The notes: generated from the sequence alone by a model not told the origin. DNA of 64,000 nucleotides from an uncultured Gammaproteobacteria bacterium (GCA_965231135.1 OZ246419.1:321488-385487), one strand, 5' to 3'; counted from the stretch's first letter, positions 967 through 64,000 are shown. Made by a program: numbers and translations.

Positions 967-2136
967 TTACAAGAGTGGGCCCCAGTTGCTGATTGGCATA
1001 GCATTGTTACTAATAAATGCTAAAGCAAAAAGAAAAGTTGGAATAATTAAAACAAGAAATGCTATTTTAAATTCTTTAGAACTTGCGTACTTTGCAAATG
1101 CAGCATATATAAAAGGAACGATTGGCAGAGCATAACGCATTAAATCGCGATGAGCGACAAATAAAAGAGTTGACCCAAAAATTCCAACAAAACATGCAAG
1201 AGTCCAATCTTTTTGTTTAATCAATCGCATAAAAGCAATGCTTGCAAATAAATAAATAAATAAAATTTCTTCCAACCAAAATGTGCCTACCCAAGGGGCG
1301 CTGTAATTAAAAATCTGAAAAGGAGGAAACATCAAATGAATATTGTCACCTGAATGAAAATATGCAAAAAAATCGTTAAATTGCAATTTATAAATATAAA
1401 AAATTACCAGAAGGGTAATTGGAATTAAAATTAATGGATATTTTTTGAGGTTTAAGGACTTGATCCAAGGACCAAATTTTGTTGTTGCGAAAGATTTAAA
1501 TCTTGGAAGAAAAGTGGCTGCAAAATAGGTAACAAATAACAAAATTCCTGGAGATTTTGTCAGAGTTGCAATAATTCCCCAAATTGCAGAAGCCCAGAAT
1601 TTTTTTTGATCATAATAATAAATTGATGCAATTATTGCGCCGATAAATAATGGTTCGGGAGATCCAACAGAACGGACGATTAGCCAGCGAGCTGGAAAAA
1701 TAGAAAAAACTGCAGTGAGCCATAATGCGTCTATTTCGTTTACATAAAGTTTCATTAATTTATTGAAAAAATAGAGAGCAATTAAAGAAGTGAATAATGT
1801 AATTGCGAGCATTGAATAAGGGAAATTTTTTGTAACTAATCCCAAACCTCTAATCAATAAAGGAAAAAGCGGAAAATGGGCTGCATAATATTGAACTGGC
1901 AAAGGAAACTCAAAATTGTTTTTAATTTGATTTGTGTTGTATAAAGTTTTTGCTACAACTAAATAAAGAGGGCCATCGTAGTTTGCAACTATTGTTTCAA
2001 GCCCGTTTTGAGGAAGTGGAATGTTATCTATTTGCGGAACTTTGAAATAAAAAATACCCCAAATGATTAATGGAGGAATAAGAGTTAGGAGAATAAGCGG
2101 GAAGATGTTTTTGATAGTTTTCATTGATATAATCAT
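967..2136 (-). CDS. polytopic membrane protein, GT-C-like, PIG-V/Mannos_trans_2-like (paralog of 41731-42891)
   Basis: 389 aa with many hydrophobic helices. The loop YLVVAKTLYN...FPLFPLLIRGL parallels DGEHYLSIAQNGYQPLEYFFFPLFPLLIRFL in ORF 41731-42891. The D-x-E-H-Y-L-x-I-A-x-x-G-Y...FFPLFP pattern is what I recall for GPI-mannosyltransferase-2-like (PF04188) proteins. Confidence 0.5.
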   Translation of the reverse strand: MIISMKTIKNIFPLILLTLIPPLIIWGIFYFKVPQIDNIPLPQNGLETIVANYDGPLYLVVAKTLYNTNQIKNNFEFPLPVQYYAAHFPLFPLLIRGLGLVTKNFPYSMLAITLFTSLIALYFFNKLMKLYVNEIDALWLTAVFSIFPARWLIVRSVGSPEPLFIGAIIASIYYYDQKKFWASAIWGIIATLTKSPGILLFVTYFAATFLPRFKSFATTKFGPWIKSLNLKKYPLILIPITLLVIFYIYKLQFNDFFAYFHSGDNIHLMFPPFQIFNYSAPWVGTFWLEEILFIYLFASIAFMRLIKQKDWTLACFVGIFGSTLLFVAHRDLMRYALPIVPFIYAAFAKYASSKEFKIAFLVLIIPTFLFALAFISNNAMPISNWGPLL

Positions 2137-2139
2137 ATC

Positions 2140-2853
2140 ATGAGTTATTTAATAGATGAACTTTCTGTCTTTTTTCCGTGTTATAACGAAGAAGCAAATA
2201 TAAAAGAAACTGTTAGTAAAGCTAAAAAAGTTTTAGAAAAAACAGCAAAAAAATGGGAAATAATTATTGTGAATGATGGAAGCAAAGATAATACTTCAGA
2301 GATTGCACACAAACTTGCCAAAGAAGATAAAAGAATTAAGGTGATTGATCAGGAAAATAGAGGATATGGGGGAGCCCTTCAAACTGGGCTTTATAATGCA
2401 AAATACAATTGGATAAGTTTTACAGATTCTGACGGACAATTTGATTTTGGCGAAATAAATAATTTTATTAATGAACAAAAAATTACAAAAGCAGATCTTG
2501 TAATTGGATATTATAAAAAAAGACAAGTATCGGACTTTGTAATTATGACCAGTAAAATTTGGGAAGTTGCCGTTTTTATTTTGTTTGGACTTCATGTAAC
2601 TGACATTGATTGTGGTTTTAAATTAATAAATAAAAAGGTAATAGAAAAGATTCCACATTTAACTGCTGAAAGAGGTGCGTTTATCTCCAGCGAATTGCTT
2701 ATAAAAGCTAAAAAAGAAAAATTTAAAATTGTAGAAATTCCAGTGACTCATTATCCAAGAAAAGGAGGAGCAGCAACTGGACGAAAAATAAATGTCATAA
2801 TAAAAAGCTTTGTTGATTTATTTAAATTATGGACAAAATTAAATCTTGGATAG
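2140..2853 (+). CDS. GT2 glycosyltransferase, Dpm1-like polyprenol-phosphate sugar synthase (soluble type)
   Basis: 237 aa. Has SVFFPCYNEE, IIIVNDGSKDNT and TDSDGQ (DxD) motifs and a CGFK motif, with no TM helix. Size and motifs match the Dpm1/Alg5-like GT2 clade. Confidence 0.8.
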   Translation: MSYLIDELSVFFPCYNEEANIKETVSKAKKVLEKTAKKWEIIIVNDGSKDNTSEIAHKLAKEDKRIKVIDQENRGYGGALQTGLYNAKYNWISFTDSDGQFDFGEINNFINEQKITKADLVIGYYKKRQVSDFVIMTSKIWEVAVFILFGLHVTDIDCGFKLINKKVIEKIPHLTAERGAFISSELLIKAKKEKFKIVEIPVTHYPRKGGAATGRKINVIIKSFVDLFKLWTKLNLG

Positions 2854-62147: not shown

Positions 62148-62848
62148 ATGTAAATACATTCAAGCAAGAATACTTTAAAAATAGGAAATGGAAGTGCGCA
62201 CCTAAAAAGATTGTAAATTCCGTAGTGAGCGAAGTTATGTCAGTTGCTTGTGAAATTTTGCCTTCTCACAAGTCTTTAACGGTTCTTGATATTGGTTGTG
62301 GGCAAGGAGAATATTCTATTGAATTTTCGAAGTATGCCCGAAAAGTAGTTGGAGTTGGGCCTGATTTTGATTCTTATAAAGAAGCTGTGAAATTCAGAAG
62401 AAAAACAAAATCGAAAGTTACCTTTATAAATTGTCCCGTTGAAAAATATAAAACTAAATCTAGTTTTGATATTGTTTTAAGCTTAACAACTGTTGAACAT
62501 ATGTCTCATGTCGAGAAATCCTTTAAAAGGATATTTGAGTTATTAAAACCGGGAGGGTTTATTTATTTGACGGCGCCAAATAAATGGTGGCCTTATGAAT
62601 ATCACTACAGGTTGTATTTTCTGTCCTGGTTACCACTTAAATTGGCAAATTTTTATGTAAAAACATATGGTCATAGAAGTTCGTATGAAGATAGTGCATA
62701 TTCTAAATCTTATTTTGGTATGAAATCGTTGTTTGATAAATTTGATTGTACTTATGAGTTTGTTCTTCCTAGAGATTTAAATTCTTCGTATATTGGTTGT
62801 GGTGAACAAAGTTTTTTTTATATACAACTTTCAAGAAGTTTGGATTGA
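62132..62848 (+). CDS. class I SAM-dependent methyltransferase
   Basis: 238 aa. VLDIGCGQGEYS (motif I), VVGVGPD motif present, DIVLSLTTVEHM motif present, PGGFIYLTAPN motif present. Confidence 0.75.
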   Translation: MVKIMNVNTFKQEYFKNRKWKCAPKKIVNSVVSEVMSVACEILPSHKSLTVLDIGCGQGEYSIEFSKYARKVVGVGPDFDSYKEAVKFRRKTKSKVTFINCPVEKYKTKSSFDIVLSLTTVEHMSHVEKSFKRIFELLKPGGFIYLTAPNKWWPYEYHYRLYFLSWLPLKLANFYVKTYGHRSSYEDSAYSKSYFGMKSLFDKFDCTYEFVLPRDLNSSYIGCGEQSFFYIQLSRSLD

Positions 62849-62917
62849 TATTAATAAGTTGGTTTCCTTTTTTTTGGATTTTCTCGAAAGGATTCATAAT
62901 GATAATTAAGAAAAATA

Positions 62918-64000
62918 ATGATTAAGCGCAAACAAGTTTTTTTATATTTTTTGTCTGTTATTTTAGTAGTTGTTTCTATTGTTTATTTACCTTTCGTAAA
63001 CGGTTTTTTTCAGCAGGATGAATGGAATTTATTTGGAGTTTTTACAGTTTTTAGGGGATTAGGACAAAATTTCTTTCTGCAAGATTTTATAAAAGGATCG
63101 GGCTTGCATTTTGTTCCTCTTGCCAATATATTTTCATATCTTGAATTTTCGCTACTTAAACTAAATTTTGTAGAATATGCTTTTACTAGTATTTTTTTTC
63201 ATGTTCTGGCAACTGCTCTGGTTTTTGCTTTTGTTAGTTTGTTGATTAATAATAAGAGATTTGGATTATTATCAGCGCTTTTCTTTGGAATTTCTAATGC
63301 AGGAAATCAAGCTACTACATGGGTTGTTGCTAATGTCAGTGTTCAGGGAGCAGTAATTTTTTCGGTGTTATCGCTTATCTTTTTTATTAAATTTGCTAAA
63401 TCTGCAAATAAAATTTCTTATTATATTTCTTATTTTTTATTAGTAATATCTCTTCTTTTTAAGGAAAATGCAATTGCGTTTTTTGTATTTTTACCAATAA
63501 CTTTTTATTTGTACGCAAATAAAGATTTAAGAAAAAAATATTTTTATCCACTTTTTATTTTTGTGACAGGAGTGTTTTACGGATTAATTAAAGTATTTAT
63601 GATTTTGCACGCTTCGGTTTCTGGGACTGCTGGTTCTCAATCTAAACTTGCAATTTTATATAATTTGATAACATTTCCCTTAAAAGGACTTGTCCAGACG
63701 ATTATTCCTGTTGATTTGGAACTTTCTGTTGCAAAAAGTATTGCATTAATTTTTCCTGAGAAAGTTCGGGGTTTTTTTGCAACAACTCAGTTTGATATTT
63801 TTGTACAAAAAAGAGTATTAGAAATGTTAACTTTTGTATTTTTTTTAATTATAGTTTTTATTTGTTTCTTTATTTATAAAAAGATAGAAGATAAGAATAT
63901 TAAAAAAGGAATTATTTTTGCGTTTATTTTTGTATTGATAAATAGTTTTATTTATGCACTTTCTCCAGACAGAGTTGGGATAATTCCTATTGTTGATTCT
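62918..64000 (+). CDS. polytopic membrane protein, GT-C-like (5' partial; runs off window end)
   Basis: Open frame of 361 codons with no stop, from the ATG at 62918 to the window end. Translation starts MIKRKQVFLYFLSVILVVVSIVYLPFVNGFFQQDEWNLFGV (TM1 + DE-containing loop), then has many TM helices. It is absent from the ORF track only because the stop lies outside the window. Confidence 0.5.
   Translation, partial: MIKRKQVFLYFLSVILVVVSIVYLPFVNGFFQQDEWNLFGVFTVFRGLGQNFFLQDFIKGSGLHFVPLANIFSYLEFSLLKLNFVEYAFTSIFFHVLATALVFAFVSLLINNKRFGLLSALFFGISNAGNQATTWVVANVSVQGAVIFSVLSLIFFIKFAKSANKISYYISYFLLVISLLFKENAIAFFVFLPITFYLYANKDLRKKYFYPLFIFVTGVFYGLIKVFMILHASVSGTAGSQSKLAILYNLITFPLKGLVQTIIPVDLELSVAKSIALIFPEKVRGFFATTQFDIFVQKRVLEMLTFVFFLIIVFICFFIYKKIEDKNIKKGIIFAFIFVLINSFIYALSPDRVGIIPIVDS

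Follow-up and report, generated by a model that had tools for sequence, protein, structure and literature searches.

What would a bacterium with a genome of about 0.8 Mb do with some 20 polytopic glycosyltransferases encoded side by side in one locus? The question is raised by a stretch of 64,000 nucleotides (GCA_965231135.1, OZ246419.1:321488-385487), deposited as DNA of an uncultured Gammaproteobacteria bacterium and called here the window, which an earlier sequence-only reading had taken for a glycosylation locus rich in glycosyltransferases of the GT-C fold and possibly a lineage-specific envelope system. Here we show that the window carries 19 complete GT-C genes and one truncated one, and that their order and individual identities are conserved across the Microgenomates, which supports the lineage-specific character of the system. 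We propose, with a probability of roughly 0.6, that the window belongs to a large, operon-like locus of an ultra-small, Woesebacteria-like member of the Microgenomates (Candidate Phyla Radiation, CPR, or Patescibacteria), that this locus is conserved in the lineage, and that its products assemble a complex glycan at the outer surface of the cytoplasmic membrane.

GT-C genes occupy almost half of the window

The GT-C genes were assigned by Pfam, BLASTP, profile comparison and structure prediction, and their number agrees with the roughly 19 candidates of the sequence-only reading; the complete genes alone amount to 30,324 bp, or 47% of the window. Pfam models (PMT_2, PMT, PTPS_related and PIG-V) match 15 of the 20 proteins, 14 above the cut-off and one just below, and PMT_2 and/or PMT are matched by 13, among them the one just below (21656-23182; 25.4 bits against a cut-off of 26.1). 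The five that have no Pfam match (open reading frames, ORFs, o02, o12, o14, o26 and o53) were placed by paralogy, profile comparison or structure prediction; at E-values up to 5, Pfam returned nothing for o02, o12, o14 and o26, nor for a smaller membrane protein, o25. A hydropathy scan gave 7-11 transmembrane (TM) segments in all 19 complete candidates, and the acidic first periplasmic loop on which the earlier count had relied is present throughout, all 20 proteins having a D or a DE at a distance of 10-25 residues behind TM1. The invariant acids of this loop are D33 and E34 in family A, D53 in o14, D27 in o26, D42 in family C, D67 in family D, and D34 and E35 in the family of o53.

Searches with hidden Markov models, profiles and folds place every large polytopic protein of the window, except the two Wzx-type flippases, in the GT-C fold. 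An identity as transporters, which would have overturned the earlier reading, was rejected on the basis of the fold searches, in which transporters appear only as noise (Foldseek probability <0.15). Sequence-profile searches of the PDB gave no match for families A, C and D, o14 or o53, the profile of o26 alone succeeding, and AlphaFold2 models of o14 and o31 each consist of a helical bundle and a soluble C-terminal domain. Among the 13 proteins that match PMT_2 or PMT, none has a MIR domain according to Pfam. This domain, lumenal and inserted between TM segments, is the hallmark of true protein O-mannosyltransferases (PMTs), so the name 'glycosyltransferase family 39 protein' given in databases to individual genes, others of which are called 'ArnT-like', is nominal only.

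All-against-all BLASTP divides the 20 proteins into families A (six members), B (four, loosely related), C (two) and D (two) and six singletons, five complete plus the truncated o53, much as the sequence-only reading had supposed in speaking of at least four families plus singletons. The members of the four families are:

o23, 25384-27075 (+), family A; PMT_2 E 2.9e-9; in alignment A1
o24, 27439-29208 (-), family A; PMT_2 E 3.9e-7; in alignment A1
o27, 31197-32798 (+), family A; PMT_2 E 5.5e-13
o29, 34295-35980 (+), family A; PMT_2 E 9.3e-11
o31, 36574-38211 (+), family A, ArnT-like fold; PMT_2 E 1.4e-13; NCBI name 'glycosyltransferase family 39 protein'
o32, 38187-39860 (+), family A; PMT_2 E 3.9e-12, PMT E 8.5e-10
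o04, 2829-4355 (+), family B; PMT_2 E 4.6e-12; first-loop motif 'LGDEGRD'
o06, 5928-7403 (+), family B; PMT_2 E 1.1e-10 and BLASTP paralogy
o07, 7396-8880 (+), family B; PMT_2 E 8.1e-9 and BLASTP paralogy
o19, 21656-23182 (+), family B; PMT_2 just below cut-off, as given above; paralogue of o06 (E 1.5e-24)
o12, 12517-14271 (+), family C, PTPS_related/YfhO-like; 39% identity to o28 (E 5e-91)
o28, 32791-34314 (+), family C; PTPS_related (PF10131) E 1.7e-8, 33.8 bits, cut-off 26.4
o02, 967-2136 (-), family D, PIG-V-like; seven predicted TM helices; BLASTP to o35 E 3.6e-6; first-loop motif 'NYDG'
o35, 41731-42891 (+), family D, PIG-V-like; Mannosyl_trans2 E 1.5e-8, 34.9 bits, cut-off 22.4

The six members of family A are full-length paralogues with 28-36% identity, and all carry the motif 'DEAxxGYxAYSILKTGKD' directly after TM1, the DE pair of which is invariant across 43 sequences. 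Identity is highest in the first 140 residues, the catalytic and donor-binding part (46% and 41%), and falls to 25-29% elsewhere, a pattern that fits a common donor chemistry combined with different acceptors. The model of o31 (predicted local distance difference test score 89, predicted template modelling score 0.90) has ArnT as its best Foldseek match (E 4e-7, TM-score 0.55), followed by oligosaccharyltransferases (OSTs), ALG12/ALG9, DPY19, EmbC and Pmt4. ArnT is thus the closest fold, yet it shares only 11% identity with family A, and genes for lipid A are absent from the window; CPR bacteria have been described as lacking a Gram-negative envelope (PMC6744442). The family C profile (A9) aligns to family A with an hhalign probability of 90.9%, and that of family D (A10), of whose 27 members 13 match Pfam PIG-V and six PMT_2, aligns to the profile of o26 at 93%.

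An OST-like fold, extended singletons and an apparent half GT-C

The six singletons, and a shorter protein related to family A, are:

o10, 10365-11918 (+), GT-C; PMT_2 E 5.3e-11; first-loop motif 'FADEA'
o14, 15690-17375 (+), GT-C of a Pfam-less family with an STT3/AglB-like fold; directly behind the Wzx gene o13
o26, 29949-31163 (+), ALG6/PIG-M-like GT-C, placed by its orthologue profile; conserved motif 'HERYLYP'
o43, 50147-52216 (+), GT-C whose C-terminal domain is of the discoidin (F5/8 type C) type; PMT_2 E 7.5e-11
o49, 56975-59086 (+), GT-C with a C-terminal extracytoplasmic domain of ~250 residues; PMT E 2.8e-14, PMT_2 E 2.2e-14
o53, 62918-64000 (+), truncated twentieth GT-C, leaving the window; polytopic; first-loop motif 'FQQDEW'
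o25, 29205-29924 (-), membrane protein of 239 residues adjoining the family A gene o24; no Pfam match

The model of o14 combines an STT3-type TM fold with an AglB-like C-terminal globular domain, and its closest fold is STT3B. Its sequence identity to STT3, AglB and PglB (family GT66) is only ~12%, Pfam gives no STT3 match even at E-values up to 5, and the WWDxG motif that is present in those enzymes is absent both from o14 and from the consensus of 48 homologues, which is why o14 is not filed as an OST. The string nearest to WWDxG is 'LTYPYD' (residues 446-451; consensus LTYPFD), which follows the first strand of the soluble domain. The family is a large one, with at least 1,394 homologues.

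The profile of o26 (A3, 31 orthologues) found yeast ALG6 (6snh, E 5.7e-11) and PIG-M, the glycosylphosphatidylinositol (GPI) mannosyltransferase I (E ~3e-9), in the PDB. The discoidin match of o43 (F5_F8_type_C, E 5.5e-6, 27.0 bits) lies below the cut-off of 28.2; a carbohydrate-binding module of this type fits a glycan acceptor. Pfam has no match for the ~250-residue extension of o49; the C-terminal extensions of o43 and o49 are both long and extracytoplasmic. Homologues of o53 are ~550 residues long and have no Pfam match, nor did o53 itself match anything in NCBIfam or Pfam; their profile (A7) aligns to family A over 285 columns (hhalign 97.3%, E 2e-11). The family of o25 (148 cluster representatives) aligns to columns 249-394 of family A (hhalign 87.8%, E 3e-6), and o25, which is without the N-terminal DE catalytic loop and lies in an operon with the full-length family A gene o24, looks from its alignment like a stand-alone 'half GT-C'.

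The gene order is conserved across the Microgenomates

Relatives of the locus were sought by scanning one genome per species. More than 583 relatives of family A were found, essentially all in Microgenomates, the best of them 68% identical; the named ones belong to the Woese-, Ames-, Shapiro-, Collier-, Levy-, Blackburn- and Chisholmbacteria. In 78 related loci, fetched at ~21 kb each and many of them truncated, the order o20, o21, o23, o26, o27, (o28), o29, o31, o32, o33, o34, o35, o36, o37, o38 recurs, with o29-o31-o32 present in 59 of the 78 and o31-o32-o33 in 50. The orthologues have a median identity of 41-44% to their own paralogue in the window as against 31-34% to the next best, which indicates that the duplications are old and that every copy has been retained. 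Synteny also links the left half of the window to the complete Woesebacteria genome CP066693.1 (916,571 bp) and to a JGI contig, the order common to these left-half loci being PMT_2 genes, a GT2 gene, PMT_2, an o12-like gene, wzx, an o14-like gene, three GT2 genes and a GT4 gene.

The GT-C set nevertheless varies somewhat between close relatives. A further GT-C gene of the YfhO family (707-777 residues) follows the GT4 gene in two Woesebacteria loci, those syntenic with the left half (L081, 15306-17639; L083, 16458-18581), with none at that position in the window, and Levybacteria-type loci (L059, L079) have the same parts in another arrangement.

Candidate donor-forming enzymes, flippases and sugar-modifying genes

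Glycosyltransferases and flippases together make up ~80% of the window, and ~90% with the sugar-modifying enzymes added, so that the figure of about 63 of 64 kb given by the sequence-only reading was too high. Pfam recognises GT2 domains in 14 proteins, close to the roughly 15 of that reading, and, exactly as it had counted, GT4 domains in four and Wzx-type flippases in two. It had also singled out three soluble Dpm1-like GT2 proteins and one GtrB/ArnC-like GT2, and these were recovered as the four that resemble polyprenyl-phosphate-sugar synthases of the DPMS/ArnC/GtrB type:

o03, 2140-2853 (+), soluble GT2, candidate polyprenyl-phosphate-sugar synthase; Pfam GT2 E 1e-33
o08, 8864-9643 (+), soluble GT2, candidate polyprenyl-phosphate-sugar synthase; GT2 E 1.3e-27
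o37, 44119-44898 (+), soluble DPMS-like GT2 of the conserved core; PDB and PpgS-like matches
o44, 52194-53129 (-), GtrB/ArnC/PgfS-type GT2; two C-terminal TM helices at ~238 and ~263

Over its full length o03 is similar to ArnC, a dolichyl-phosphate (Dol-P)-hexose transferase and PpgS, and over ~205 residues to ArnC, GtrB and DPMS in the PDB; the similarity of o08 to ArnC, PgfS and the Dol-P-hexose transferase is partial. Taken together, the soluble proteins o03, o08 and o37 resemble ArnC, the Dol-P-hexose transferase and PpgS, and also DPMS and GtrB. The best PDB match of o37 is the Dol-P-mannose (Dol-P-Man) synthase of P. furiosus (5mlz, E 3e-14, residues 11-233). For o44, the ArnC model scores 175 bits over residues 2-293 of 311, the PgfS model 130 bits over the full length, and AglJ is also matched over the full length.

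The remaining glycosyltransferases, the flippases and the enzymes that may modify sugars are:

o13, 14240-15733 (+), Wzx-type flippase of the multidrug/oligosaccharidyl-lipid/polysaccharide (MOP) type; Polysacc_synt_3 E 1.6e-57
o36, 42867-44144 (+), Wzx-type flippase; Polysacc_synt E 4.2e-19
o15, o16 and o17, 17749-20314 (+), three GT2 (Pfam); block kept after the o14 homologue in L081 and L083
o18, 20597-21610 (+), GT4; Glycos_transf_1 E 2.6e-25
o20 and o21, 23224-24830 (+), two GT2 (Pfam), start of the conserved core; synteny o20-o21-o23
o33 and o34, 39862-41768 (+), GT2 and GT4 (Pfam)
o38, 45793-46914 (+), GT4; Glycos_transf_1 E 3e-37
o42, 48999-50150 (+), GT4; Glycos_transf_1 E 1.6e-29
o45 and o46, 53176-54968 (+), two GT2 (Pfam)
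o50, 59101-60984 (+), RmlD-like reductase fused to a membrane-anchored GT2, 627 residues; RmlD_sub_bind E 5e-67 (7-298), GT2 (324-476)
o51 and o52, 61143-62848 (+), GT2 with C-terminal TM helices and S-adenosylmethionine (SAM) methyltransferase (Pfam)
o09, 9640-10341 (+), short-chain dehydrogenase, possibly for sugar modification; adh_short E 2.6e-25
o30, 35970-36614 (-), PEMT/ICMT-like membrane methyltransferase; PEMT E 2.8e-12
o40 and o41, 47455-48971 (-), SAM methyltransferase and polysaccharide deacetylase (Pfam)
o47 and o48, 54984-56982 (+), flavin adenine dinucleotide (FAD) oxidoreductase of the amine-oxidase family (o47, 54984-56264; Amino_oxidase E 8.6e-26) and SAM methyltransferase

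Both flippases have 10-11 TM segments. The RmlD-like domain of o50, of the dTDP-4-dehydrorhamnose reductase type, is a hint that the glycan may contain a 6-deoxyhexose, for example rhamnose; homologues of o50 come after o37 in ten Shapirobacteria-type loci. Genes resembling o47 lie between o32 and o33 in eight related loci and genes resembling o09 between o33 and o34 in four, this mobile position being seen in loci such as L012, L014, L021, L028-L031, L009 and L016. The pairing of o47 with o09 recalls the DprE1/DprE2-type epimerisation of a lipid-linked sugar, although the FAD enzyme is of a different family; o47 was also considered as a UDP-galactopyranose mutase or an analogue of DprE1, but the similarity found is only generic, at the level of the amine-oxidase family. 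Pfam recognises in the rest of the window, besides the short-chain dehydrogenase, the RmlD-GT2 fusion, the FAD enzyme, the three SAM methyltransferases, the PEMT/ICMT-type methyltransferase and the deacetylase, an alpha/beta hydrolase, a DHH phosphoesterase, a DUF5667 protein and a weakly matching cupin.

Origin and coding layout

Proteins of the window are identical to recorded proteins of a Patescibacteria-group metagenome-assembled genome (MAG; locus tag VG895_, contig of 810,692 bp, Logan run SRR12170514), and the closest relatives of the window are Woesebacteria. Many of the closest related loci (L002, L003, L005, L006 and others) come from MAGs deposited as 'uncultured Gammaproteobacteria bacterium'; these MAGs share 55-68% identity and full synteny with Woesebacteria and Patescibacteria records, and the organism labels therefore look wrong.

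The window contains 52 ORFs of at least 150 residues, a few small ones and one ORF that leaves it at the right end; the locus extends past base 64000. The ORFs lie almost all on the + strand, with a coding density of ~98%, and neighbours mostly overlap by 4-44 bp or are less than 50 bp apart, larger intergenic gaps being confined to 5356-5928, 20314-20597 and 60984-61143. The GC content is ~30% overall and uniform (28-34%). GC skew is positive in all 2-kb bins (0.05-0.32), nearly every gene being on the G-rich + strand, and a marked G/C disparity between strands has been reported from some complete Microgenomates genomes (PMC7143001). No tRNA genes or Rfam families were found in the window, and Pfam detected no mobile-element genes there. 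A scan of the window for sigma-70 promoters and terminators yielded no excess of sites over shuffled sequence and is thus uninformative on operon boundaries.

Among the genes of the locus are several that are small or unassigned (46923-47465; 283-966, -; 11919-12467, -; 17365-17733; 44895-45752, -). They comprise the DUF5667 protein, which has an N-terminal TM helix and is kept after o38 in L006 and L026, two Pfam-less proteins (227 and 182 residues) and three small ORFs, and could serve as accessory factors or substrates. The 571-bp gap at 5357-5927 holds an ORF of 92 residues (5377-5655, -) that matches only positions 138-200 of the model for NAD-dependent epimerase/dehydratase (E 1.6e-8) and is probably, to judge from this partial match, the remnant of a decayed sugar-epimerase gene.

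A proposed multi-step pathway and its alternatives

In the pathway that we propose, cytoplasmic GT4 and GT2 enzymes would make a lipid-linked primer from nucleotide sugars, some of which may be altered by the products of the RmlD-like, short-chain dehydrogenase, FAD-oxidoreductase, methyltransferase and deacetylase genes, and the two Wzx-type flippases would move the lipid-linked intermediates outward. The four DPMS/ArnC/GtrB-like GT2 proteins would charge polyprenyl phosphate with single sugars, and these lipid-phosphate-sugar donors would be used by a fixed series of GT-C enzymes (six ArnT-like members of family A, four of family B, two YfhO/PTPS-like, two PIG-V-like, one ALG6/PIG-M-like and several singletons), each adding a particular residue or linkage. 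Since o14 immediately follows a Wzx gene and has an OST-like fold, it would be the best candidate for en-bloc transfer of a flipped lipid-diphosphate-oligosaccharide to an acceptor. The pairing of donors with transferases and the order of the steps would follow this scheme, and the product may be a wall polymer, a lipoglycan or a glycoprotein glycan.

Several points weigh against this proposal. Similarity to the PMT family is equally compatible with direct glycosylation of proteins. All matches of the GT2 proteins to named NCBIfam equivalogs lie far below the curated cut-offs, so similarity does not fix the sugar specificity or orthology of the candidate synthases. Within the window Pfam finds neither a priming phosphoglycosyl transferase of the WecA/WbaP type nor a GtrA-type lipid-phosphate-sugar flippase, a Wzy/WaaL-type polymerase or ligase or a LytR-CpsA-Psr (LCP) ligase; key steps would have to be encoded elsewhere or carried out by unassigned proteins. 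Finally, 515 GT-C-like ORFs were counted in the 1.35 Mb of the 78 related loci. Their density, 0.38 per kb as compared with ~0.30 per kb in the window, is no unbiased genome-wide figure, since the loci were gathered by their similarity to family A.

The GT-C paralogues could instead be PMT-like protein O-glycosyltransferases, each with its own set of surface proteins (pilins, S-layer or wall-anchored proteins) and with no stepwise polymer. Thirteen of them do match models named after protein O-mannosyltransferases, o14 has an OST-like fold, and o44 resembles PgfS of the protein-glycosylation system Pgf of S. mutans, in which a GtrB-like synthase is paired with GT-C enzymes (bioRxiv 10.1101/2022.10.10.511621). 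We nevertheless consider this unlikely, since Pfam reports no MIR domain, family A has its best structural match in ArnT rather than in Pmt, and the ALG6/PIG-M-like and PIG-V-like enzymes lying beside GT4, GT2 and Wzx genes fit the building of an oligosaccharide; strict one-to-one orthology in a fixed order also fits a pathway better, without excluding a substrate-specific set.

That the locus might be a fast-evolving, horizontally shuffled island of surface-glycan diversity comparable to O-antigen or capsule loci, its paralogues reflecting strain variation under pressure from phages or hosts, would account for the varying flanks, among them the YfhO gene of L081 and L083, for the different positions taken by the o47, o09 and o50/o51 genes and for extra copies of family A on the minus strand of some loci. 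It is hard to reconcile, however, with a core order and one-to-one orthologues that are shared, at 35-68% identity, by Woese-, Ames-, Shapiro-, Collier- and Blackburnbacteria, with the uniform GC content or with the lack of mobile-element genes noted above, and appears to us improbable: the fixed order and ancient one-to-one orthology favour a defined pathway of several steps over a hypervariable island. Just as improbable, in our estimate, is an addition of single sugars to membrane lipids or to an existing teichoic-acid-like polymer, the logic of GtrA/GtrB/GtrC, CsbB/YfhO and ArnC/ArnT repeated many times over. ArnT is the closest structure to family A, family C matches PTPS_related, YfhO is present in relatives and o44 is GtrB/ArnC-like, all of which would suit such decoration, but besides GtrA-type flippases Pfam also fails to find TagF/TarL-type teichoic-acid genes in the window, 20 enzymes for four donor synthases far exceed any decoration system described, and the GT4, many GT2 and Wzx genes imply oligosaccharide synthesis.

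Relation to known systems

The proposed assembly of a complex outer-face glycan recalls the arabinogalactan, lipomannan and lipoarabinomannan (LAM) pathways of mycobacteria and corynebacteria (EmbA-C, AftA-D, MptA-C, PimE; Ppm1; DprE1/E2), which also rely on serial extracytoplasmic GT-C enzymes and on polyprenyl-phosphate-monosaccharide donors made by GT2 enzymes, some of the GT-C enzymes bearing periplasmic carbohydrate-binding domains. AftA, AftB, AftD, EmbC and PimE are among the structural matches found here, and in both cases FAD and short-chain-dehydrogenase oxidoreductases are embedded in the cluster. The resemblance is one of fold, however, with no detectable orthology at the sequence level, and the FAD enzyme of the window belongs to the amine-oxidase and not to the DprE1 family. 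M. tuberculosis has ~15-20 GT-C genes scattered over 4.4 Mb, whereas here ~20 lie in a single 64-kb locus of a genome of ~0.8 Mb.

The N-glycan and GPI pathways of the eukaryotic endoplasmic reticulum (ALG3/9/12/6/8/10, PIG-M/V, DPM1/ALG5, RFT1, STT3) have a set of parts in common with the locus: cytoplasmic GT4 and GT2 steps, a MOP-type flippase, DPM1-like synthases, GT-C elongation and an STT3-like protein. This likeness extends to single genes: the o26 profile matches ALG6 and PIG-M, o35 matches PIG-V, the fold of o14 is nearest to STT3B and an archaeal Dol-P-Man synthase is nearest to o37. In contrast to those pathways the present locus is bacterial, its GT-C enzymes are mostly of the ArnT/PMT_2 and not of the ALG type, it has no primer enzyme of the ALG7/WecA type within the window, and o14 lacks the STT3 motif and Pfam match. 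In the Gtr, CsbB-YfhO, ArnC-ArnT and S. mutans Pgf systems, a GT2 enzyme of the type of o44, with two C-terminal TM helices, likewise stands beside GT-C enzymes of the PMT_2 or YfhO type, but each synthase serves one or two GT-C enzymes that add single sugars, as opposed to the 20 GT-C enzymes, four candidate synthases, two Wzx flippases, four GT4 and ten further GT2 proteins encoded here.

We came across no account of this cluster in the literature that we searched. Kadnikov et al. (2020; PMC7143001) noted that one complete Microgenomates genome contains 29 glycosyltransferase genes, Méheust et al. (PMC6744442) do not mention glycosylation, and a 2024 perspective on Patescibacteria leaves surface glycans aside. 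The components of the locus are of known kinds; what is new relative to the literature found is the scale, a ~0.8-Mb genome having 20 GT-C genes within 64 kb, along with the architecture conserved throughout the lineage and the newly assigned families of o14, o53 and o25.

Implications

Although the genomes of CPR bacteria are minimal, ~8% of an 810-kb contig is given to one glycosylation locus, nearly half of which consists of GT-C genes. Several large families labelled 'hypothetical' in databases (those of o14, o53 and o25) now gain a fold and a testable role, and the locus provides a compact natural model of the diversification of acceptor specificity among GT-C paralogues.

More tentatively, we can envisage a stronger version of the proposal, possible rather than probable, in which Microgenomates (genomes of ~0.8-0.9 Mb) keep a lineage-wide assembly line of ~60 kb for one defined complex surface glycan made from lipid-linked sugars. 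This line would comprise 8-10 GT-C enzymes, each of them ancient and conserved in its own right, together with the STT3/AglB-like family of o14, not annotated before, whose WWDxG site would be degenerate and which would link the oligosaccharide flipped by Wzx to proteins or the wall. If true, this would be a bacterial counterpart of the archaeal and eukaryotic pathway of lipid-linked oligosaccharides and OST, outside the proteobacterial PglB lineage, and the assembly line could be central to the envelope or to host attachment. The envelope and host-attached lifestyle of the CPR/Patescibacteria are essentially unstudied; since the line-up of genes is kept across the whole superphylum, its product is probably important for one or the other.

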